A DNA stretch of 63,574 nt, the filler included, from Collodictyon triciliatum (taxonomy: Eukaryota), in NCBI GenBank assembly GCA_043381765.1. It is 9 parts of 9 records of this genome, joined end to end, with 100 filler letters (N's around TTAATTAATTAA, not from the genome) between each part and the next. Parts side by side here need not be neighbours in the genome. Positions count along the whole stretch, not along the records: positions 8,834 to 15,029 come from JBHJMP010003305.1; 8 more parts are not named here. One strand, given 5' to 3'. Positions within the stretch are counted from its first letter, which is position 1. Each line of letters starts with the position of its first letter. The notes under the pieces were generated by a model, which saw nothing but the letters and a program-made list of their open reading frames with translations, was not told the DNA's origin and searched no databases. Below are positions 5,081-62,106 of the stretch, one piece after another. The translations under genes and the position numbers were made by a program.

Positions 5081-8000
5081 ATGTCGAAGAAGATTGTGGG
5101 TATTTTTCTTGAAGTTTAAGCTGATTCCCTCTTCAATATATATCCGTATTTGCGATGTTTGAAGTTTTTTTTTTTATTGTACCTTCTTTCCCAAATACAC
5201 TATTTTCCCCCCATGGCTTTACTGCTCTTCATCTGAGCATATTTGTATCCCGTGCTTGAAAAACATCAGTCGGTCAAAGTGATCTCCAGAGATCCCCGTG
5301 AGTTCAGTCGCGAGAGAAAAAGCGACATTCAGCGTGTGGAAAGGAATCCCGACCCTGCTTTGCATCCTTTCGAGCGTGCCCGAGAATATATACGCACCTT
5401 GAATGCCGTCAAGTTAGACAAGATATTTTCGAAGCCTTTCCTCGGTTTGCTTTTATTTACTATCTTCTGAAACCACATTTTTTTTCTCCCTCGTCTCTTG
5501 AATATCATTTTTTCTTTCTGTAAACTTATACAACCACTTCATATTTGCTGAGACCATATCATATCTACAGCTTCATTGGAGGGCCACACAGACGGCATAT
5601 TCTGCATGGCACGCAACCCGAGACAACTCACAGGAATGCTTTCAGGCACCGTGAATGGAGGTTTGCTTCTTTTTTTTTTTTTTGTCTCCTTTGGCTCTAT
5701 TTGGGTCTTCATGAAGTATTAAAACAGTTATGATATGTACGTTGGTTGTTTCAAGATATTTAATCTTATGCTATAAAACATCTGTACACAGAAATTCGAT
5801 ACTGGGACGTGACTCTAAAGTAAACACTCTAGTTCGTCCTTTCTTAAAATGATGTTTTCTGGCGGATGCGTGAAAATGCTGTGATACCATTTTTACTATT
5901 TCTCTCCATATAGGCGCTGCACTCTATCCATTAGCAAAGGTCATGAGGGATATGTAAGGGGGATTGCAGCTCTGCCCACTGGTCGTCGATTCCTCACATG
6001 CGGGTTTGACAAGACCGTGAAATTGTGGAACTTGAAAAATAATACCAAATATGAAGACTTGGGGGACTATGGCGATGATAATCATGAAGAAGATACAATG
6101 GTTTGTTATGATTAAGATAAGAAGAAAAAAGAAAGAAGACATAGCCAATTATTATTTTTAAAATATTCTATAAAGTATATTCTTACTGACGCCAACATCG
6201 CCAAAATATGTCTCATCTGAAAAATTCAACCAAAGCTTCGTGGCACATACTTTGGCTCAGACCCGTTCTAGTGAGTATTCAATTAAAGATTCTGATGTGC
6301 CCTTTTGAAACTGAAATAAATCCTTTGGTATTTTTTTAACTTTTCTTTGTAAATAAAGTGGAGTCGATGTCCACCGAACAGATTCAATTTTTTGCACATC
6401 AAGTAATAAGATTGACATGTGGGACATTGGAAGGTTTGTGTTAAAACAAAGGAAGAAGGAGAAAAGGCACTAATAATTTTCCTTTTGTACTCACACGATT
6501 ACATATGAAACATGTAGATCCGAACCTACTCAAAGCTTTACGTGGGGTGCCGACTCTATCATATCAACAAAGTTTAACCAAGTAAGAATTTATTCAACCA
6601 AACTTCATTTTGTCCATCCTATTTCACCAGCAAACCATTCATTAGTTCCGTATGAACATTTTCTTTTCTTTTTAGTATGATAATGAATTTTTTTTTTTGG
6701 AAAAAAAGGTTGAACCAAATATCCTGAGCAGCTGCGGTTCTGACCGTTCAATCGTATTGTATGATATCCGTCTGAGCACGCCAATCCGCAAACTCATCAA
6801 TAATGTAAGTCATTTGGCCAAAATATCAATCACAAGCTATGGTTTAGCTACCAGCAACTTAGGTCTGAAAATTTCCTCTACATTTTACCAATCATTTAGA
6901 TGAGATCGAATGCAATCAGCTGGAATCCAATGGAGGCGTACAATTTTGTGGCTGTAAGCCTATCTCCGATGATATAACCTCACCATAATTTGCTCGTTTG
7001 ATGATGATTTTATCATTATTTATTTTATTAGCGGACCCATCTAAAAAATTTTTGGGATTAAATCTTGTAGTGGCAAGTTAAGCAATGCTATTAATTTGTA
7101 GGCAAATGAAGACCACAATATTTATGCATATGACATGCGATCCTTGAAAAAGGCACTTATGGTGTACACCGATCACGTCTCTGCTGTGTATGTCAATCTC
7201 TTTCGTGTATTCTTTGCAGGCTTCACATTATGGACAATGGAGCGCCTCGCCCTTTTTCACGAGCTCATTAATTTCATATTGATTATTTATTGATGTAAAT
7301 TAGACTGGATGTGGACTTTTCACCAACCGGACTAGAGTTTGCATCTGGCTCTTACGACCGTACCATTCGTGTCTATGATAAAAATGAACCCAGAAGCAAA
7401 GAAGTATACCATACGCAGCGCATGCAGCGGTATATATTCACCGCCACTAATATATGCAATATTAATTAATTTATGTTATTGTGAAATATATATATATATA
7501 TATTACATGTAAGAAATTTCAGAACATTTTTTATGTTGATTCTAATGGTCATCATGTTACAAACAGAATATTCTCGATCAAGTACAGCTCTGATGCAGAA
7601 TTTGTTCTCTCAGTATGAATTTTTTTCCATAATAGAACGAGAAAAGAAAAGAAAAAGGAAGTGTGTGCTCTACAGGCAAAGTTGGGCTTATGCACCCCTT
7701 TTTTCTTTTTTCTTTTTATCTTTTTTCTTTTTATCTTTTTACTTTTTACTTTTTACTTTTTACTTTTTACTTTTTACTTTTTACTTTTATTTACTCACCC
7801 ATTTTAGGGAAGCGATGACACAAACATTCGCATCTGGAAGTCTCACGCCTCCGCACCGCTAAAACCAGTAAGGAACATGTAGAAGAGTATTACATGAGTA
7901 TAAAATCCAAACTTGTGAATCTAAGCTAAAATAATCCCTATAAAAGTATATAATGCCCACCTAATGACCTGAATATATCTCCAAACTCACTTCATTTAGC

Positions 8001-8470
8001 TTCTGCGGAGAGAAAAGAAAAGTCTGAACTATTCCGAGAAATTAAAGGAGCGTTACGGCCACTTGCCTGACATTTATCGCATCAAGAAGTATGAGAACTT
8101 ATTCACAATCAAACTTCAAAGGATAAAACGTTTTGGCAAAGCATCCATATCAACTATTTAATACCTGCAACCATTCATGAATGCTCTATCTGCCAATCAA
8201 CAGACATCGCCATCTTCCCAAAGTCATTCTCAAGGCCTCAGAGAAAAAGAAGATTATGAAGGACTCGCAAAAGCGCAAGCTGGACAATCTCATCAAGCAC
8301 AGGTTCCTTCATCTCAAAAATATTCTTGCCATGTTGCGTCAGCATGTTTACCTAAATATTCTCATAAACCCGTTCAAACTGTCTATATCACACCTGTTGC
8401 TTGCAGCAAACCCGGCGCTGTCAAAGTTCCATCCAAAGCCAAGGCCGCAATTGTCCAGGAAATCGAATAA
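5081..8470 (+). CDS. DCAF13: DDB1- and CUL4-associated factor 13 / Sof1 (WD40, SSU processome); multi-exon, complete
   Basis: MSKKI|SVKVISRDPREFSRERKSDIQRVERNPDPALHPFERAREYIRTLNAVKLDKIFSKPF, SCGSDRSIVLYDIR, SNAISWNPMEAYNF, EVYHTQRMQR, GSDDTNIRIWK, HRHLPKVI; stop TAA 8468-8470. Confidence 0.95.
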
Positions 8471-8733
8471 AGCAAGAAAGATCGCAGTCGAGGTTTTACA
8501 ATTAATATGCAAGTTGTGTAGAACAGGGAAAGATTACATAGCTTGCACTCATAATTTTGTCTTTCTGTTTGTTGTTTTGATTCTCTATTCCTCCTTTTAA
8601 TTTGCGCAAGTTGGCGGGGATTACGGCTTTGTTTTTTGTTTTTTGTTTTTTGTTTTTTGTTTTTTGTTTTTTGTTTTTTGTTTTTTGTTTTTTGTTTTTT
8701 GTTTTTTTGTTTTTTGTTTTTTGTTTTTTTTTT

Positions 8734-8833
8734 NNNNNNNNNNNNNNNNNNNNNNNNNNNNNNNNNNNNNNNNNNNNTTAATTAATTAANNNNNNNNNNN
8801 NNNNNNNNNNNNNNNNNNNNNNNNNNNNNNNNN
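8734..8833. other. Artificial scaffold-joining linker
   Basis: N44-TTAATTAATTAA-N44 (stops in all six frames). Confidence 0.97.
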
Positions 8834-8916
<83 letters not shown>

Positions 8917-9661
8917 TAATAAAAGGGAAGAAAAAAAGGCTTCGGGCTCAAGCCATCAACTCACGGGCAGCAAGATAGGTATGAATATAGTGCTCTGTAT
9001 TAGTGTCTCTGATTCATTTATCCGTTTTTTCTTTTCCTTTTCCCATTTTCTTTTTTCTCTTTTCTTTTTCTTTTTTCTTTTATCTATTCTTTTTCTTTTT
9101 TCTTTTTTTTTTCATCGGTCTCATTCGGCCTGTAAATGGATAAACTTCATTACAAAGGTTGTGACGAACTTGGTTTTATCCCTTTCAAGGAACAACACTT
9201 TATTTGCAACGAAAGTGCACCCATATATATAGATAGCAATTTATTGCACAAACAACCATCGAATTAAATCTGGATTGACGAAAGCAGGAGTATTGATGAA
9301 TCAAGAAAGAACTTGAATAATATAATAGTATAATTAGTATACATAGTAAGGTTAAATATACTTAAAAATCTCATTCTATTCCTGTAATTAATTTATATTT
9401 TATTTTCCATTATCGTATTAAAATCCAAAATTACAAACAAGCCGTTGCATTGGCCCAGACAGAAATCAGCCCTATAAACCTGCCACCAAGCATGCATATC
9501 AAAAAAGCATACTACCCACACTTGTGGCGGTAATCATATTGTTTGGGGCCGATATGTTGACTTTAAGTCGCCATGGCTATACGGCCGTCCTTTCGAACTC
9601 GCCGAATCGGCTCTCAGCGTTTTGTCTCAAATCACTCGAATAAAAAAAAAAACCTTGTGTA

Positions 9662-11843
9662 TCTGTTTACCACAATGCGTACATTTTGAGAGTTTTGGTA
9701 GATGCTTAGTTTTACATAAATTGATTTTATGCAGTTTTTTTTAAATTGACTGTTTTACTAAAGTTTTATCAAAATTGAAAACTCGGTACTTTTCTCAAGA
9801 AAAAAGTAAAACAAAGACTTTCAGATGAAGAAAATAAAACATCTTGAGTCTGGGAATATAAAGTCTGTAAAACCACACTATCGAAATGTGAAGCCATCTC
9901 TAAAGTCGATTGTAAAGAATGCGGATGACTATGACAAAATCAACGATACAGTTTTATTGTGTCATAATTTGGTTGGGGACACTTATCTGTTTGTAAGATG
10001 TTGCATATTGAAATCAAAACCACCAACAATCGATGAAATGTGTTTTTTTTTTCTTTATTCACTTTAAAGACAGTCGGAAAAGTTTCACAAGATAGACCCG
10101 CACGTTTAAAACATCCAGAAATGAGATGATATGATGATTTTTATCTCTATGATTTTCGATTCCTTTCGTCCCGAGAAGAACGCTTTCCGTTGGTTAAACT
10201 GTCTCATGCATTACCGTACTTAAGGAAGCAAATGTTAGCAGCTTATCAGAACACCACTAAGGAACATTTTGTAAAGAGGTTACTGCGCTTTATAAATCAA
10301 AAAGTTCCTAAATATGAGAATATAACGGATACTGTTAAAAAGGCAGAGTTACGAAAGTTAAAAAAAAAGCCATCTTCAAGAAATTCGAAATACCGGAACA
10401 ATATCAAGGATGGACTAAAATGCATCTGCATCATATAATTCCCAGCGATATTGTAAAAGGTATCGAATATGACGCCAAAGTCAATCCAAAGAAGTACATC
10501 CCATGTTTGATTCACATGAATCGCATTTTTGAGGACATTGTATCCAAAAGCTTCGACCAATCTCTATAGGAACTAACAATAAACCATGTCATATTACTCT
10601 AGATACTGCATGTTTGATATATCTATTAGTCTTATCTGGAAAGTCATTATTAATGAAGAACATATCAGGATACAAAGAGACACTATGGGAAAAGTTCTTT
10701 GAAATGGAGAAGAGGGTCTTCCATCAAACAGACTACAATTTTAAATACATGATACAAACAGACGGCTTGGCGGTGTCATGATTGTTTGAAAAGAAAGGTA
10801 TTTCAAATTCAAATTCCAAATACAATCAAAAAGAAACCAAGAATATGTCTACAAAGATGAACTTTCCGAAGAGCAGTTATCTTTATTAGCGAATTTTTTT
10901 TTTAGTTGGAGTGGACGCAGGCAAGTTTAATTTGGTTTACATGGTAGACGAGACAGGTAAGAAATTACGTTACACGACACACCAAACAAGACATGATAAC
11001 AAATCTCTTTAAAATCACAGAATACTCTTGTGCGAGAAAGAAAAGAAAAGTACAAGGCTTCAGGGATATGCATGGCAGCAGGTTTACAAAGAGCTTTTTC
11101 TTTTAGTCACCTGACTTTTGAAGAGAATCAGCAGGTTGAGACATCAAGAGCATCTTTAATCGATTTAGAGACATAACTGAATAAACATAATTCATGCACG
11201 GTCGATTATGAAAAAATTCGGAAATATGTATCTATGAAATTAAGATACCCGATAGAATTATCCAGATTTTATGAACACGTAACTTTTCGAAAGATGAGAT
11301 GGAGACAGTATGTTAATACAAAAAGTAGTGAAAGTTGTTTATGGACCGAATTGAAAAGACATTTGGCAAGGATGTTATACTGGCGTATGGAGACTGGAGC
11401 AGAAAATCTCCGATGAAACATTTTACGCCAACAATCGGAAGAGTATTACGAAAAAAATACTATCCAAACGTTTTGATACCAGTTATTGTAAATGGATTAA
11501 AACCCTCCAAGATGTGCTGTAGCTGCGAAAAAGAACTGGGATATATGACACTGAAAGGAAATACAAAAAAAAGTGTATAGTTGTCTCATGTGTAAAGAAT
11601 GCATTCGCTCAGGAAGCAAACAGAGTCTATTCTTGACAAGGGACTTTGACAGCGCTAAAAATATACTCAAGAAAGTTCTTTTACTCCTTCAAAATATGCT
11701 TACACCTTTCTTTTTTAAAAAATCGGCTGTCGGGTCTCTCCTGGCGGCCTTCACCACTACACAGTCTTTGAGAAAAAAGTGGTGAGACGTTGGGTACTAG
11801 CGGACTATATTTACCAATCGAAAGATTGGAGAACACGTCCTAG
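9662..11843 (+). mobile_element. Putative non-autonomous Helitron-like element carrying Fanzor1
   Basis: Right end: 16-nt hairpin (11814-29), 10-nt spacer, CTAG (11840-43) followed by T. Left end is a guess at A|TC 9661/9662; no Rep/helicase gene seen. Confidence 0.45.
9825..11785 (+). pseudogene. Fanzor1 (eukaryotic TnpB/Cas12-like RuvC endonuclease), intronless, multiply frameshifted
   Basis: Frame-hopping translation gives colinear Fanzor1-type blocks: YRNVKPSLKSIVK..INDTVLLCHNLVGDTYLFVR; LSHALPYL..YQNTTKEHFVKRLLRFIN; HIIPSDIVKGIEYDAKVNP; KPCHITLDTA; YMIQTDGLAVS*LF (10746-10787); RuvC-I VGVDAGK (D 10914-16) + KLRYT; FRKMRWRQY; LAYGDWS; RuvC-II VIVNG (expected E is G, 11494-96); zinc finger CCSC/CKEC; RuvC-III RDFDSAKNI (D 11642-44). 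At least 4 in-frame stops and several frameshifts. Confidence 0.9.
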
Positions 11844-11860
11844 TAAAACGAAAAGAAAAT
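11720..11860 (+). ncRNA. Candidate Fanzor omegaRNA scaffold plus 3' flanking guide segment
   Basis: Stems seen directly: TCACCACT(11751-58)/AGTGGTGA(11778-85); TACTA..GGAC(11795-805)/GTCC-TAGTA(11837-45) enclosing CCAATC-GAAA-GATTGG (11814-29). Position overlapping and following the ORF 3' end fits TnpB/Fanzor guide RNAs. Limits approximate. Confidence 0.55.
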
Positions 11861-12198
11861 CGAAGGTGCCACCAATGCCAGATGGAAACGCAATCTCCAA
11901 CCTTTTCCACATTTGATGAATCATCTTGGTAAAATGTCATTCCAGCCAATCCAGAATTCTGCACTTCCTATTCCAGGACAAGAAAGCGAGTTTCCACATT
12001 AGCTGGAAAGATAACTCATCACAACCAGCACAGCAAACATCTCTTCAAACCCCAAAATTCTCACAGAGCCCCAAATTCCCTCTCCCAGCCGCAAGGGAAC
12101 AAGTTAATAGAAACCACCCGGCTCCCGATATCAAACATCGGATGGATAAATACCCTAGCCACTCCATATATGTGCGACAGTTCTTTCAAGGCACCTCA

Positions 12199-12316
12199 CA
12201 AAAACAAAAACAAAAACAAAAACAAAAACAAAAACAAAAACAAAAACAAAAACAAAAACAAAAACAAAAACAAAAACAAAAACAAAAACAAAAACAAATA
12301 CAAATACAAAAAAAAC
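12199..12316. repeat. (CAAAAA)n microsatellite between Fanzor element and Ctr gene
   Basis: Direct reading. Confidence 0.9.
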
Positions 12317-12486
12317 AAAAAACCAGAAACCCAAGGACAACAGACATTTATGGGCTGTTAGTGTGGTCGTGTGTATTTATTGGAAGGAGAGAAACCCTCT
12401 TTTCCTCACGACAACTAACCAGACTCGATCGCCACCCCAAAGAACCGCCCCCTACAAAAACATAAGGAGACTCTCGCAAACGCACT

Positions 12487-13291
12487 ATGACTAACGCCAT
12501 CGATCTGGTCAGAACCGCAGCCATGAGCGCCGCACCCGCCCTGCTTCTCTGCCTCATCGCAGCCACTGTGCTCATCGCCGCCCGCGCCCATCCGCATCCG
12601 CACGCTGCCCAGTACGACCACAACCACAACCACAACCACTTCTATGGCCACAACCACAACCACAACCACAACCACAACCACAACCACAACAACCAACAAG
12701 CAGCTGCTCTCTCCAAACTCAATCCCGCCGAAACTATGCGCCTTGTCCAACGGGCCTTCCGTGTTGCCCACAGCATGGACTCCAACAAAGCGGCCTCATT
12801 GAACCCTGAGCAGGTTCCGTACTGTCATCACTAACACCATCATCATTATCATTATCATTATTATCACTATCATTATCATTATTATCATCGTCATCGTCAT
12901 CGTCATCATTATCCCTATCACTATCATCATCTCCCGCAACACTCACGCATCACAGATGTTTGAGCTCTTGCAAGAGTCTGCCTGCCAGCCCCACTGCCCA
13001 GTCTGCGGAATGACTGTGACCTCTGCAAAGAACCGCCTCCTCATCAAGAACAACCAGTACCTGTACTTCTGCTCAGGCGGCTGTCGCGATACTGCTCTCC
13101 AGACCCCGGATGCCTATGTGCTGGCAAACAACACTCTGCCCATCCCCGAGTGCTTCCTTGCCCAGGAGCATCACTGCCCAGTCTGCAACATGGACACGAC
13201 TGTCTCCCCCTCGACCAAGCACATCCAATGGGCTCACGGTTCGACTCCCACTCATATTACACTTTGTATCACCACCACCATCATCACCACC

Positions 13292-13322
<31 letters not shown>

Positions 13323-14702
13323 CCGTCATCATCACCACCATCATCACCATCATCACCACCTCAACCCAGGTCAGCGCTCCTTCGTCTGCGACATGTCGGT
13401 CGACCACAGCGAAAGCATGCGGCAGGAGCTTTCCCGCTACGTCAGCGCCCTCCCCAGCGAGTGCCAGTCCGTGCAGTGCCCCGTGTGCAAAATGTCCATC
13501 ACGCCGGGCCCGTCCTCGCCGACCGTCGAGTTTGCCAACGGCCAGGTCCTCAGCACGTGCTCCAGCGGGTGCCAGACAAAGCTGCTGCAGACGCCGGAGC
13601 GCTACCTGGACCCTGCCGCAGACGCCCAGCGCATCCCACCCTGTGACGACGGCAAGAACATCGCGTGCCCGGCGTGCAGCGACCGCTTCCTGGCCCGCCC
13701 CACCACCCCGGCCCTGGCGTTCCTGGGCGGCCAGCGCATCTACACGTGCTCCCAGGCGGACGGCTCCTCCGACCTGCCGCTCATCCAGGCCGACATCCAG
13801 CGCTTCATCACCACAGACATCCCACCCATCGACGATGACGACGATGACGGTGGCGACATCGACCCGCCCACAGGCTCGCGCTGCCCGGTCTGCGGCATGG
13901 ACCTGCCCTCCGACCCCGTCTACCAGGGCCTCAACTACGGCCAAGCCGTCTACTTCTGCTCCACAGGCTGCAAGGACAGCTTTGTGGCCGACCCCACCCG
14001 CTACTTTGGAACCAGCGGCGGCGGCGGAGCGGGCGGCCACAGCATGGCCATGTACTTTATCAGCTCCACAAGCGCGACCATTCTCTTCAAGGAGTGGGAA
14101 GTCTCCTCCGCCAGTGGCTATGCCGCCTCCGTCGTTGCCGTCTTTGCCATGTGTCTTGCCCACGAGCTCATCGCCGCCCTGCGCCATGTCCTCTACCTCA
14201 GGGTGAAGGAGAACAGGCCCCAGAAGATTGTCTATGCATCGACGGGTGCTCTTGGGTAAGCCTGATTTATGCTACGTGATATTTATTTTTCTATTCTTCT
14301 GTATCAAGTTGTGCGTTTCCAAACAGGCATGATTTCTTCTTCTTCTTTTTCTCTCCCAGCACCCAATCTTCCCTCCTTGACCTCCCTGGGAGGGCACAGC
14401 TGCACATTGGCACACCCGCATTCATTGGCTTCAATCTCTCGTTTATCTAACCCATCCATTCTGACATGTGTAGCACCCTGTCCTCGTTCATCGTGCACAA
14501 CGGCCGTGTCGTGCTCGCCATTCTCTACACAATCTCGTCCATCACGTCGTTGTGCCTAATGTTGATTGCCATGACTTTCAACACAGGACTCTTTCTTACC
14601 ATTGCCGCAGGCATGGGAACTGGCTGGTACCTCTTTGGCTTCAACCGAGGCCCGGCTTCCTCAGACACTTGCTGTGCTGATTACAACGAAGTCATTGGCT
14701 AA
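12487..14702 (+). CDS. Ctr/SLC31 copper transporter with signal peptide, His/Asn tract and five tandem YHS/TRASH-like domains (~574 aa)
   Basis: Exons 12487-12813, 12956-13238, 13370-14255, 14474-14702 (GT-AG, 1725 nt, open frame; alternative ATG 12523). Ctr hallmarks: HSMAMYF..ILFKEW before TM1, MLIAMTFN (MxxxM) in TM2, GMGTG (GxxxG) in TM3. Five CPxC repeats, e.g. CPVCGM..YFCSTGCKDSFVADPTRYF. Confidence 0.88.
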
Positions 14703-15029: not shown

Positions 15030-15129
15030 NNNNNNNNNNNNNNNNNNNNNNNNNNNNNNNNNNNNNNNNNNNNTTAATTAATTAANNNNNNNNNNNNNNN
15101 NNNNNNNNNNNNNNNNNNNNNNNNNNNNN
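15030..15129. other. Artificial scaffold-joining linker
   Basis: N44-TTAATTAATTAA-N44. Confidence 0.97.
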
Positions 15130-15162: not shown

Positions 15163-17546
15163 GTTTACGAAACCGAGTATGACCTGCTGCTGAATCCAGA
15201 TATCAACTCAAAAGCTCACACACAGTGGTTCTTTTTTTCTATATCAAACATGAGGAAAAACGTAGAATACAAGTTTAATATCATAAACCTTGAAAAGCCC
15301 AATAGCCAGTTTAATTTTGGGATGATGCCAGTCATGTACTCCACGCAAAATGCAATTGAATTAGATACGAGTTGGGTTAGGACAGGGTTTGACATATGCT
15401 ACTTTCCAAACCGATATTTGAAGGAGCGAAAGGGCAAATTCCAATCTTGGTATACGTTCTCATTCAAAGTTGTGTTCCCGCACGACAATGATTTAGTCTA
15501 TATGGCCTACCACTATCCATATTCATACTCTGATCTCCAGCGCCATCTCAGTGAAATTGAGGTTTCTTGATTTGAGTTTCCGTCATGTTTCATATCCTTT
15601 AGCACCTTTACAATATAATATCGATGACCACAAACCACGTTTTCTAAGTTTCTTTTCTTTTTGACCCCTCAGATAACTCCATATATTTCAAACATTTACC
15701 GAAGACAAACATTATGTCACACAATCGGAGGAAACGCATGCGATTTAATTACAATCACAAATTTAGACGGTACAGAATTGGTATGACCATCGTTTTCATA
15801 TACATATTACCTTGGCCTCAACTTGTTTTATTCTATTGGGATTGTACCTGGAGTGAAAGAAATAAAAACAAAAACAAAAACAAAAACAAAAACAAAAACA
15901 AAAACAAAAACAAAAACAAAAACAAAAACAAAAACAAAAACAAAAACAAAAACAAAAACAAAACCGAACCAAAGAAAACATCAATTCATTTTTTCTGGTT
16001 GACCTAACAACAATATATTCAGAACTCTTTTTTTTTTTTTTTTTAAGATTAGTCACCTGGTTTTCTACGAAATAGGAAATAATGAGTCGGAAAGTAATAA
16101 TCGTAACTGCTAGAGTTCACCCTGGAGAAACGAACAGCAGCTGGATAATGCAAGGCATTCTGAACTTTTTGGTATCTGATACTGATTACGCAAGGTAATG
16201 TCCTCAAAATTATAATTTCATGAGAGATTCTATTCTCGTTATTCATTGAGGTTGTTTCTCTCAAGTATGTAAGTGTAAAGTTAACACGAAGTGAATGTCG
16301 GAGGCAACCTCAATCTATAAACATTACTATTGCAAACACTCCCAGAGAGCTGCGAGAAAGATTTGTATTCAAAATAGTTCCTATGTTGAATCCCGACGGT
16401 GTCATCAATGGGAATCATCGCTGCTCCTTATCTGGATTGGATTTGAATAGACAATGGAGCAATCCCTCTAAATACATTACACCAACAATTTATTACACAA
16501 AGTAACCTTCTTAAGCTCACAACAACGTTATCTTTTACTTAATGAGAATCATAGATCTTATGAATCCTGTATGTAAATTTGATTCATTCACATAGGTTGT
16601 TAATGAAAAGGCTCAGAATGGAAAAGAGAGAGATATACATGTACTTCGACTTGCATGGTCACAGTCGAAAAAAATACGTTTTCATGTTTGGTTGTCACAA
16701 TGACCGAAATGATAGACTTCGAAATATGGAGAAGATATTCCCGTGGCTGCTCTCTAAAAGAACACCCATGTTTTCCATGAGAGAGTGTGATTTTGTCTTG
16801 CAAGAATCCAAGGCATCAACGGGTAGAATAGCTTTGTGGAGAGAGTTTTGCATTACCTGCTGCTACACGATGGAATCAACGTACTGCGGAACCACTACCA
16901 CACACTTTAACACTCGCCATTTGGAGGAAATGGGTCATAATTTGGTTCAAAACATATTAGATTATGATAACTTGACTGAGGTATGTCGAACATATGGCCT
17001 TTTTTCCTTCTTTTTTTTTTTCTATCACGGCAGAACAGAAAAATTAATGCCTCAAGCACTCAATTAGCATCATGATTCGAATATTGTGTGACTTTTTTTT
17101 TTAACCAGTTTGCCCCTTCCGATTTTTTCTGACAAAACAACAACACTAAACAATTATGCAGTCTGGTTTCCAGACAAATCTCGGAGAGATACGCATGTGG
17201 ATGAGCACTCACAAAGCCGAGTTAGGCAATACGTTCGTTGGCACCCCAGCAAATGCACAGCCTATGTTAAACCCTTCCCACACCCAACACGCAAACGGTG
17301 GACATAGTTTCCATTTTTATGGAGTTTCAGGGGAGGCACAATCAGATGAAGATGACGCAGCAGATGATGATAAAGGGTGCGTACAAATATTATTTTAAGT
17401 ATGTTGAGTAATTAGTCTGTGTAAACGTTTTTAAATGCAGGATGGGTTTTCGATTGGTTGACCTGCCTACTCATGAACGAGATAAACGTAGCAGAAGAAA
17501 GAAAGCTAAAAGAAAACAGAAACTAAAGCCTTATGGCAAGAAGTAG
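15163..17546 (+). CDS. AGTPBP1: Cytosolic carboxypeptidase (M14D, CCP1/Nna1-like tubulin deglutamylase); 5'-truncated, multi-exon
   Basis: [67 protein letters not shown]; stop TAG 17544-46. The specific paralog assignment is less certain than the family. Confidence 0.85.
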
Positions 17547-18249: not shown

Positions 18250-18462
18250 TTAGCCTTTACACGAGATGTAAGTCAGGGTGACATGCAATCCTTGAATAAC
18301 TTGATCCGTTATAATCAGTAATCTCGGTTGCTGCTGCTGCTGTTGCTGCTCTCTTTCTTTCCTTCTCTGCTTTTTAGTCTTCTTGACTATGATTTGTTGT
18401 TGCTGTTGTTGCTGCTGCTCTCTTTCTTTCCTTCTCTGCTTTTTAGTCTTCTTGACTATGAT

Positions 18463-18521
<59 letters not shown>

Positions 18522-18559
18522 GCTGTTGTTGTTGTTGTTGTTGTTGTTGCTGTTGTTGC

Positions 18560-18620
<61 letters not shown>

Positions 18621-20856
18621 GCTGTTGTTGTTGCTGTTGCTGTTGTTGTTGTTGTTTTTGCTGTTGTTGTTTTTGTTGTTGTTTTTGTTGTTGTTGTTTT
18701 TGTTGTTGTTGTTTTTGTTGTTGTTTTTGTTGTTGTTTTTGTTGCTGTTGCTGTTGTGTTTTGTTATCAGAACGAGAGCGAGGTTTGGTGGGAGGGCCTT
18801 GTGGTGGGGGGATATGTGGTGGAGGGCCTTGTGGAGGAGGGCCTTGTGGAGGAGGGTCTTGTGGAGGGGGGATATGTGGTGGAGGGCCTTGTGGAGGAGG
18901 GTCTTGTGGTGGGGGTGGCGGATTTGTCATGACAACATCGGATAATTCGAACACTCGACCTCTTCTACGTGCGTCCTGGATAAGGTCTTTGAGAGCGTCA
19001 CTTCCTTCTGAGAGAGTTTCGATGCATCCAACCATGATGAATGAAAATTGGGCCCTAGTGAGAGAAACATTGAGTCTACGCGAATCTCTCAGAAATCCAA
19101 CTTTCCGTTTTACATTCGCTCTCGTAAAAGAAAGAATAACAGTGTGGAACTCTTTTCCTTGCGAACTGTCAACGGTTTGAGCTAATTTTGGCAAGGATTT
19201 TTCGTGTAAGGCTTCATTAATTTTGACAACTTGATATCTGTAATAGCATAGTACCTTAACTTTGTCTTCAAGTTTACCAGTATACAAATCAAGTCGAGAG
19301 AGAATGCCAATAATTTTTACGATTGCCTTCACTTCCGATTTGTTGAATATCTTTTCTTGATGTAATTTTTCTATTCCATTGACATTAATGAAGGAGTATG
19401 GTGCCATCCATATTTCATGCAGCGCTCTAGTTGGGTTTTCTCTGGATTCAACGTATTCACTATCGAAAAGTTGTCCATCGTAAATGTATTCTCTTACCCA
19501 TTGACTTATTTCGGGGTCCATACGGTATTGCTCGTTTAAGGTCGAGTGAGGCTGGTTTAGATTTTCGATCAAGCGACTCATCAAAGACCTTTGATAGTTT
19601 TTACTTATGCACAAATCAGAATGGGCCAGAGGCGGTAATTGTTTTGTATCCCCCACAAACATCACTTTTGGGGGACACCTTTCAAGTGGAACAAGACTCT
19701 CAGCCTCACATACACGCCCAGCCTCATCTACGATAATAGCATCAACATGCCTGTTCCGCAGCATCCCAGAGCCCGAAGTACAAACTGTGCAGAAAACAAT
19801 ATCTGCATTATCTAATTTCTCGATTAATCGGTCAGTCTCTTTCTTGCTTCGAATATCATAAGTTGCAATAAAAATGGATCTGAGATTGGACTTTTCTGGC
19901 TTATGTTCAATGGAAGCCAAAATGTATATTTTGTGATTGGTCTCCAACTCCAAGTATTTTTCAGCCAGCAATCTCACGCCTTCATTGTGATGAACACATA
20001 TAATGAGCTGGGCATTTCTCGTTGAAACTAATGCACTTGCGACGTTAACAATCATAGTCGACTTTCCGGTTCCAGGGGGACCTTCGACAAGATGGATTCC
20101 CTGTCCCATCCTATAAAATGTGGCAGCGGCTCTTTGTTGAGAGTCATTTAAGCGACAGAAAAGAGCCACTTCTTCCTGGGTTAGTGGTTCGAATTCTCTC
20201 TGGCTTGTACCGGCCAATAATTCTGCCAGCCACCTTAGAGGAATGCCGTTTGTGCAAGTGGAATATGCTCTTTCAGCCATTACATAGCTAGAAACAGTAA
20301 AGGCATAAAAAATTTTTTCATTATCGCATATGAGAATTCTTTCGGCCATTTCGGCGTTTTTGAATGAGATAGTAACTCGGTTCTTTTCATTTTTTCTCGA
20401 TCGAACGACACCCAAAAGAAGAGAGTAGTTGTTCCTCTTATCGTGTTTCACCCTGGCATTTTCTGTCATGACAACGACGAAACTATATGGTTTGATGCTT
20501 TTTGGATCGTCGAATTTTAAAGAGGTCTCAAAATTAAATAAGGCCAAATTTCCAAATCTCTTTCCGGCGTTTACTTCTTTGACATAAAATAGGCTCTCGA
20601 ATGGGGTTTCTTCGTCGAGAACATCCAGAGTAGCGATACCTTGTTGCAGTTGCCGGCGGGTTTCTTCGATAATACAGTTCAAAAACGAATTGAAATAAGA
20701 CACAGGTTCTGTATAAACATCAGAAATGGCCTGTGTTTCACGAATCGGTTCGTAGGGCCGTCTAATAAAATCGATATCCCAATACGTAACAAAAGCGTCC
20801 AGGTTTCTGGGATACCAATCCTGAAGATCGGAATATATTGTCTCTTGGTCACTCAT
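18250..20856 (-). CDS. Upf1/Sen1-like superfamily 1 helicase (AAA_11/AAA_12) with Pro-rich and polyQ C-terminal tail
   Basis: 868-aa ORF: LNDSQQRA, GPPGTGKS, IIVDEAG, VGDTKQLPP, EQYRMDPEIS, TVDSSQGKE, RRLNVSLTRA. A short terminal exon near 17990-18156 is possible. Confidence 0.9.
18463..18756 (-). repeat. Coding (CAA/CAG)n polyglutamine tract
   Basis: (TTG)n on + strand within the helicase ORF. Confidence 0.9.
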
Positions 20857-21923: not shown

Positions 21924-22023
21924 NNNNNNNNNNNNNNNNNNNNNNNNNNNNNNNNNNNNNNNNNNNNTTAATTAATTAANNNNNNNNNNNNNNNNNNNNN
22001 NNNNNNNNNNNNNNNNNNNNNNN
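21924..22023. other. Artificial scaffold-joining linker
   Basis: N44-TTAATTAATTAA-N44. Confidence 0.97.
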
Positions 22024-30753: not shown

Positions 30754-30853
30754 NNNNNNNNNNNNNNNNNNNNNNNNNNNNNNNNNNNNNNNNNNNNTTA
30801 ATTAATTAANNNNNNNNNNNNNNNNNNNNNNNNNNNNNNNNNNNNNNNNNNNN
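30754..30853. other. Artificial scaffold-joining linker
   Basis: N44-TTAATTAATTAA-N44. Confidence 0.97.
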
Positions 30854-57233: not shown

Positions 57234-57333
57234 NNNNNNNNNNNNNNNNNNNNNNNNNNNNNNNNNNNNNNNNNNNNTTAATTAATTAANNNNNNNNNNN
57301 NNNNNNNNNNNNNNNNNNNNNNNNNNNNNNNNN
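57234..57333. other. Artificial scaffold-joining linker
   Basis: N44-TTAATTAATTAA-N44. Confidence 0.97.
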
Positions 57334-62006: not shown

Positions 62007-62106
62007 NNNNNNNNNNNNNNNNNNNNNNNNNNNNNNNNNNNNNNNNNNNNTTAATTAATTAANNNNNNNNNNNNNNNNNNNNNNNNNNNNNNNNNNNNNN
62101 NNNNNN
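62007..62106. other. Artificial scaffold-joining linker
   Basis: N44-TTAATTAATTAA-N44. Confidence 0.97.

Follow-up and report, generated by a model that had tools for sequence, protein, structure and literature searches.

Positions 9825 to 11785 of a 63,574-nucleotide (nt) stretch of the Collodictyon triciliatum assembly GCA_043381765.1 (the whole stretch at full length, filler included, is hereafter the window) hold the broken remains of a gene for Fanzor1, a eukaryotic, TnpB-derived, RNA-guided RuvC nuclease that has a C-terminal zinc finger, travels on mobile elements and is described as cutting DNA beside a short motif (PMC10711439, PMC10530073). Sequence comparison supports their assignment to Fanzor1 by descent, and, judged on the same basis, the window copy is an inert pseudogene. 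We consider it highly probable that these remains derive from a mobile element, now decayed, in which Fanzor1 was formerly encoded, with membership of a many-copy family and kinship to elements of viruses. While a single dead Fanzor1 copy adds little, its worth lies in leading to a many-copy family that keeps the active-site glutamate (Glu) elsewhere.

9825..11785, + strand: Fanzor1 pseudogene, a frame-switched reading of about 638 codons without intron-sized gaps

The original prediction had proposed that a track of fragmentary open reading frames (ORFs) concealed a full-length, intron-free gene, and both parts of this proposal were borne out. Across the three frames of the + strand, 9810-11785 contained nothing but short ORFs (30-102 amino acids, aa), and switching frames yielded a single reading from the start ATG at 9825-9827 to a terminal TGA at 11783-11785. 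In a frameshift-aware alignment, residues 1-608 of the closest full-length relative, the 634-aa metagenome protein P0008, corresponded to 9825-11725, with 254 of 589 matched codons identical (43%); the alignment scored 911, whereas shuffled versions of P0008 (n = 5) scored 60-104. A BLASTP comparison of the read-through, with X placed at each break, gave 37% identity to P0008 over 643 columns, and tblastn of P0008 against the window returned a grouped expectation value (E) of 1e-41. We also queried the window with 40 long relatives, namely those of 118 phmmer matches (described below) that were at least 450 aa in length, and the 12 best-scoring each produced four to six colinear + strand pieces within 9825-11782. 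A profile of 615 positions, built from 28 of the 118 matches (560-760 aa long), aligned to the window as six + strand frame segments, in order, spanning positions 5-603 (E 1.7e-47 to 3.3e-12). The other six profile domain rows had E of 0.11-6.0, three lying on the minus strand and three in a microsatellite at 12214-12307. No second Fanzor1 copy was found elsewhere within the window.

Assignment to Fanzor1 was carried by comparison with solved structures, both directly and through P0008. All three PDB matches of P0008 at E<=0.01 were Fanzor1 proteins and nothing else was matched: Spizellomyces Fanzor1 (8gkh; E 9e-37, residues 14-607), Parasitella Fanzor1 (9cf0; E 7e-34) and Guillardia Fanzor1 (9cer; E 7e-16). 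An 82-aa fragment of the window itself (11332-11580), which includes the YGDWS strand and the first CxxC of the zinc finger, matched Parasitella parasitica Fanzor1 (9cf0) in the PDB at E 6.8e-4. The two best PDB matches of the fragment at 11000-11416 were the Guillardia and Spizellomyces Fanzor1s, at E of only 1.2-1.5, and the fragments at 10533-10781, 10890-11012 and 11555-11785 individually gave no Fanzor match in the PDB. A word-index protein search for longer relatives returned none at E<=0.01; an exhaustive phmmer search with the 82-aa fragment against 1.84 billion representatives then found 118 proteins at E<=1e-3, of which 12 reached E<=1e-10 and none E<=1e-30; many were 590-700 aa long and aligned near their C-terminus. 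Six of eight Fanzor1 relatives tested matched the Pfam Cas12f1-like TNB domain (zinc ribbon) at E<=0.01, one of them above the curated cut-off.

The order of conserved motifs agrees with this assignment. Fanzors are described as carrying DPG at RuvC-I and a catalytic Glu relocated to a site six residues ahead of the zinc finger, with a TDG motif in the WED domain characteristic of Fanzor1 (PMC10711439), and in an alignment of 15 relatives the TDG, DPG, repositioned Glu, cysteines and RD were all invariant. The counterparts in the window, with P0008 residue numbers, are as follows.

10755..10766, + strand: QTDG, containing the TDG motif of the WED domain; T318, D319 and G320 kept, intact
10905..10925, + strand: RuvC-I VGVDAGK; D372 kept (GAC at 10914), P373 lost (GCA at 10917), G374 kept
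11386..11400, + strand: YGDWS strand; G496 kept, aligned with 'LGNWS' of Parasitella Fanzor1
11494..11496, + strand: position of the repositioned RuvC-II Glu; GGA (Gly), E530 lost, six residues before the first CxxC
11515..11602, + strand: zinc finger; CCSC at 11515-11526 and CLMC at 11591-11602, with C537, C540, C564 and C567 kept
11639..11665, + strand: RuvC-III RDFDSAKNI; R580, D581 and N587 kept, N583 lost (Asp)

Each motif named in the original prediction (QTDG, VGVDAGK, YGDWS, CCxC/CxxC and RDxxSAxNI) was therefore found in the proposed position and order, as were the intact aspartates of RuvC-I and RuvC-III (D372 and D581). The RuvC-I motif reads DAG rather than DPG because its Pro has been replaced by Ala. 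The YGDWS strand, conserved within the window family, occupies the site at which ordinary TnpBs have their Glu. The prediction had also read the RuvC-II Glu as Gly, rightly so; the Glu lost at this site, invariant in the 15 relatives, is the repositioned, Fanzor-type one. Overall, of the 27 columns without variation among the relatives, 20 are unchanged in the window and seven are altered (P373A, R396T, E399D, G514V, E530G, T533P and N583D); of 16 near-invariant columns, 11 are unchanged.

The reading is interrupted by two kinds of lesion.

10127..11176, + strand: four in-frame stops, TGA at 10127-10129, TGA at 10779-10781, TAA at 11010-11012 and TAA at 11174-11176
10060..11563, + strand: ten frame changes, near 10060, 10362, 10547, 10819, 10895, 11110, 11337, 11453, 11481 and 11563

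Three of the stops (10779, 11010 and 11174) had been proposed beforehand and all were real, the fourth being that at 10127; frameshifts, several of them at homopolymers, had likewise been expected. Four of the ten frame changes (near 10362, 10895, 11453 and 11563) fell inside homopolymers of 7-10 bases, that near 10060 lay some 10 nt or less from a T10 run, and the remainder were outside long homopolymer runs. The pairs 10819/10895 and 11453/11481 mutually cancel, and the change near 11563 splits the zinc finger. The copy is called a pseudogene, in keeping with the prediction that it is dead, because it has four stops and ten frame changes and no longer has seven of the 27 invariant residues, the catalytic Glu among them.

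Further copies were recovered from two sequencing runs, X1 and X4, which represent two organisms of one study. Contig pieces were placed on the window at >=80% likeness (n = 384 for X1, n = 389 for X4), with divergence from the window and extent as follows.

Pieces >=99% like the window: 19 in X1, 24 in X4
Pieces 95-99% like the window: 89 in X1, 80 in X4
Pieces 90-95% like the window: 140 in X1, 146 in X4
Pieces <90% like the window: 136 in X1, 139 in X4
9300..11820, + strand: minimum extent of the repeated unit, with a depth of 37-505 per bin across 9300-11821 in X1 and X4

Depth in both runs dropped to about 1 in 11822-11918 and to 0 further right. Because cover was continuous up to that point, the low cover past 11822 is read as the edge of the repeat, which places its right edge within about 40 nt past the Fanzor1 stop codon. 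On the left, loose ends continued 219-255 nt beyond 9300, so that the edge on that side was not reached. No run listed by the sequencing-run search contained half or more of the sampled words of the stretch, all shares being small, and none of the listed runs was registered as RNA; four of them, X1 to X4, were compared with the window, a label of RNA for X1 and X4 being conjectural.

The copies differ from the window at sites of direct relevance to its decay. Part of the X1 and X4 pieces showed insertions or deletions relative to the window at 10548, 11332, 11451, 11477 and 11573, at or next to five of the window frame changes, so these frame changes are not common to the whole family. At position 11503 all other pieces carry A, which encodes the invariant Thr, versus C in the window, and the loose-end consensus near this site reads N-E-F-R, hence Glu is intact in those copies. 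Additional close copies were represented by short ORFs of NCBI origin on contigs of 513-582 nt (P0141, P0018, P0040 and P0079). Overall these ORFs were 60-85% identical to parts of the window (to the 82-aa fragment, P0141 85% and P0018 77-79%); P0141 and P0079 read VSVDE, keeping the Glu, and P0018, P0040 and P0079 each have frame breaks of their own.

Among the 118 phmmer matches, none of the full-length proteins exceeded 47% identity to the 82-aa query, and those at least 60% identical (P0018, P0040, P0054 and P0109) were 59-121 aa long. With close relatives short and full-length ones at or below 47%, no full-length intact close copy was seen among the 118 library matches and the X1 and X4 pieces, whose contigs are too short to exclude one. 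These data support the view that the window copy is one of many in a family present in the same organism or in close relatives of it. The original prediction of a Fanzor family in this lineage was thus strengthened by hundreds of X1 and X4 pieces (about 385 in each, beside none in the rest of the window), by the NCBI ORFs and by the Glu kept in some copies; its further suggestion of intact copies and a new programmable nuclease went beyond these data, which show neither a full-length intact copy nor that the nuclease is new. Separately, contigs of 151-208 nt identical or nearly identical to window positions 9389-9690 and 10849-11056 occurred in freshwater and lake-water metagenomes (X2 and X3), and so the organism or a very close relative occurs in such waters.

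The nearest full-length relatives of the window gene were found mainly on viral contigs. Genes resembling P0008 (80-88% identity) occurred on IMG/VR giant-virus contigs of 57-254 kb, and two of the viral loci, L009 and L011, share a common 3.35-kb block (74% nucleotide identity) in which a divergent DDE_3/helix-turn-helix (HTH) transposase (343-346 aa) accompanies the Fanzor1 gene. In L009 a perfect inverted repeat of 27-32 nt, flanked by TA, has its outer end 47 nt past the Fanzor1 stop. To go by its gene content and ends, the shared block is a Tc1/mariner-type element.

L009:8637-11952 and L011:8636-11946: complete-looking Tc1/mariner-type element, with the transposase and an open 634-aa Fanzor1 on opposite strands

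Further locus queries placed relatives of P0063 next to RNA polymerase Rpb2, collagen repeats and DUF5764, on contigs of 18-27% G+C, and kin of P0062 and P0045 (42-52% identity) on giant-virus contigs; P0056 gave a partial match only (30%). In a quick tree of 40 rows (the window read-through, 28 representatives and 11 locus proteins), the window was sister to the P0008/L009/L011 clade (Shimodaira-Hasegawa-like approximate likelihood ratio test, SH-aLRT, 83), with an end branch of 1.41. On a virus-like contig we also observed a 151-aa ORF (L002:13310-13765, - strand) containing 'IDEYKTSKIC', about 1.3 kb from a full Fanzor1 gene; it had no Pfam match at E<=1e-4 and looks like a second, truncated gene of TnpB/Fanzor type.

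The pseudogene lies in the spacer between two host genes, and hairpins are predicted at its 3' end.

5900..8300 (approximate), + strand: left neighbour, a multi-exon WD40/Sof1-type host gene identified by Pfam
11724-11750, 11751-11790 and 11791-11853, + strand: three predicted hairpins at the 3' end of the Fanzor1 ORF and just past it
12964..14259, + strand: right neighbour, a host gene with YHS (Pfam 1e-10) and Ctr copper-transporter (Pfam 7e-9) domains

A six-frame Pfam scan of 5500-9827, in which no transposase family appeared, matched Sof1 (E 3e-8 and 8e-7) and WD40 (E 1e-10) in two + frames; tblastn of two viral DDE_3 transposases against the window gave a best E of 1.1. Searches for inverted ends or direct repeats around the gene found low-complexity or 9-11 nt chance matches only. 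Right-end matches numbered 11, compared with a shuffled mean of 1.2 and maximum of 12, and all fell in T-rich tracts. One candidate, an inverted 16/17 match between 11844-11860 and 6658-6674, was rejected as chance, its distal half lying inside the Sof1-type host gene. The predicted RNA fold of 11620-11860 had a z-score of -3.3 (none of 200 shuffles folded as well), and Rfam had no match in 9000-12600. These 3' hairpins occupy the site expected of a guide-RNA scaffold and are compatible with a putative one, the fold scores not being taken as evidence of an RNA. At the 3' end of the viral counterpart the fold had a z-score of -5.2, and the last predicted hairpin there includes the right inverted end.

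Several other features of the window were observed in passing. GC content was 0.546 in 12001-14000 versus about 0.31-0.36 in the bins of 8001-12000, and the G+C-rich gene at 12500-14260 (+ strand; 0.55) has His-rich and Thr/Ile-rich repeats, YHS and the start of the Ctr domain; the joining of YHS to Ctr seems an unusual pairing. An uninterrupted 868-aa ORF at 18250-20856 (- strand) encodes a superfamily 1 (SF1) helicase (AAA_11, AAA_12, Upf1/MOV10-like) with a long C-terminal PPPQG-repeat and poly-Gln tail, whose Atlas neighbours mix bacterial, archaeal and eukaryotic clusters. The 167-aa open stretch at 16564-17067 (+ strand), containing 'FDLHGHS', had no Pfam match at E<=1e-3 and presumably resembles an exon of a cytosolic carboxypeptidase (M14). 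Finally, the window contains eight pairs of 44-N runs with 12 bases between (8734-8833, 15030-15129, 21924-22023, 30754-30853, 39580-39679, 48407-48506, 57234-57333 and 62007-62106) and also longer N runs (642, 618 and 200); the regular spacing of the pairs suggests a masking or scaffolding convention rather than ordinary gaps.

Given the viral kin, the relic might derive from a giant-virus genome that had integrated, and not from a family of cellular transposons. When the read-through was searched by BLASTP, four of the five full-length proteins closest to it (P0008, L009, L011, L013 and L021) came from giant-virus or IMG/VR contigs, where P0008 too has its kin, and the genomic company of the P0063 relatives points the same way. 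However, the genes on either side belong to the host, the left one being multi-exon, no viral hallmark gene was present among the 42 ORFs of at least 150 aa in the window, and a unit of about 2.5-2.8 kb occurring as hundreds of pieces of graded divergence resembles a repeat amplified within a genome. Moreover, metagenomes are heavily represented in the protein library, and viral kin may for that reason be better sampled than cellular kin. We therefore regard an integrated viral genome as an improbable source.

Another explanation is that the organism carries an unbroken gene and that the breaks are sequencing or assembly errors, mainly miscounted homopolymers. This would fit the frame changes in or near base runs and the many N gaps of the assembly, but the four stops arose by substitution, five or six of the frame changes lie outside long runs, and the invariant residues that have been replaced, seven of 27, include the catalytic Glu. 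Lesion sets also vary between copies, as they do in decaying repeats. Furthermore, a lake-water metagenome, which is another kind of sample, yielded a 208-nt contig that matches window positions 10849-11056 with no differences across either the T-run frame change near 10895 or the 11010 stop, so these two lesions are not peculiar to the assembly, although independence of that run from the source of the window is unprovable. It is thus very unlikely that assembly errors account for the broken frame.

A decayed Fanzor1 element of a many-copy family accordingly remains our preferred reading, against which several observations must be weighed. Four or five of the ten frame changes are at or near homopolymers and could in principle be assembly errors, and a Pfam search with nine separate window fragments at E<=1 returned nothing related to TnpB. 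The searches of the window found no inverted ends, target duplication or relic of a transposase, and the left edge of the repeat lies beyond the reach of the data, at least 219-255 nt left of 9300. The fold proposed for the guide RNA is weak at its z-score of -3.3, and its last hairpin extends past the right edge of the repeat. Lastly, the sister placement has modest support and a long branch in what is a quick tree.

By homology, an intact element of the window family would supply a nuclease of about 640 residues and, from the 3' end of the element, the guide RNA in complex with which that nuclease would cut DNA beside a short motif. The window copy cannot do so, its frame being broken 14 times and its catalytic Glu and other invariant residues replaced; located in the spacer between two host genes, it has lost, or never had, a transposase and inverted ends. 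More tentatively, the organism or its relatives may harbour a young and possibly active Fanzor1 family, sister to the giant-virus Tc1/mariner Fanzor1s and without a recognisable transposase, although we hold this to be doubtful. If true, it would imply exchange of RNA-guided nuclease elements between giant viruses and a freshwater eukaryote, and would offer naturally intact nucleases from a poorly sampled branch of Fanzor1, proteins that, as compact RNA-guided DNA cutters native to eukaryotes, have practical interest. As the nearest full-length relatives are carried by giant viruses, the family provides a small, testable case for the traffic of elements between virus and host. Fanzor1 is reported to be widespread, with up to 122 copies per genome and an association with Mariner/Tc1 among other transposons, and hundreds of unique Fanzors have already been catalogued (PMC10530073); the window family may already figure in the supplementary catalogues of the Fanzor surveys (PMC10530073, PMC10711439).

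Compared with known systems, the window gene shares its superfamily, with a split RuvC, a zinc ribbon and an RNA guide from the right end of the element, with Fanzor2 and the bacterial TnpBs of IS200/IS605 and IS607 (as described in PMC10711439). Descent from a Fanzor2, IS607/IS605 TnpB or Cas12 lineage instead of Fanzor1 is nevertheless extremely unlikely: the sole Pfam match of the relatives is the weak one to Cas12f1-like TNB, a domain common to the whole superfamily, whereas the PDB matches of P0008 at E<=0.01 comprise no Fanzor2, TnpB or Cas12, the TDG described as characteristic of Fanzor1 (PMC10711439) is present, the gene has about 638 codons for a product of about 640 residues versus the approximately 480-500 given for TnpB and Fanzor2 (PMC10530073, PMC10711439), and the viral kin are accompanied by a DDE_3 transposase, not an IS607 serine recombinase. 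Most TnpBs are described as placing their Glu some 50 residues ahead of the zinc finger and as being without TDG (PMC10711439), unlike the window family, and Fanzor2 is placed in IS607-type elements (PMC10530073, PMC10711439), whereas the viral kin of the window family pair with DDE_3.

The Fanzor1s of Spizellomyces, Parasitella and Guillardia resemble the window family in domain order, TDG, DPG, the GDWS-type strand, the Glu six residues before CxxC, the two CxxC pairs and RD. These solved proteins are distant from the window, a single fragment of which was significant against any of them, and the window copy differs in its 14 breaks, in Gly for the catalytic Glu and in Ala for the Pro of DPG.

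The closest likeness at full length is to the Tc1/mariner Fanzor1s of giant viruses and their metagenome kin (L009, L011 and P0008; 43% over matched codons). Their element has a DDE_3 transposase, inverted ends of 27-32 nt and TA flanks, none of which is detectable in the window, and the window family contains an additional segment, shared with the fragment P0003, that follows RuvC-I and precedes the next conserved block. In both, however, the Fanzor1 gene abuts the right end of the unit, the distance from its stop codon being 47 nt in L009 and about 40 nt or less in the window repeat family.

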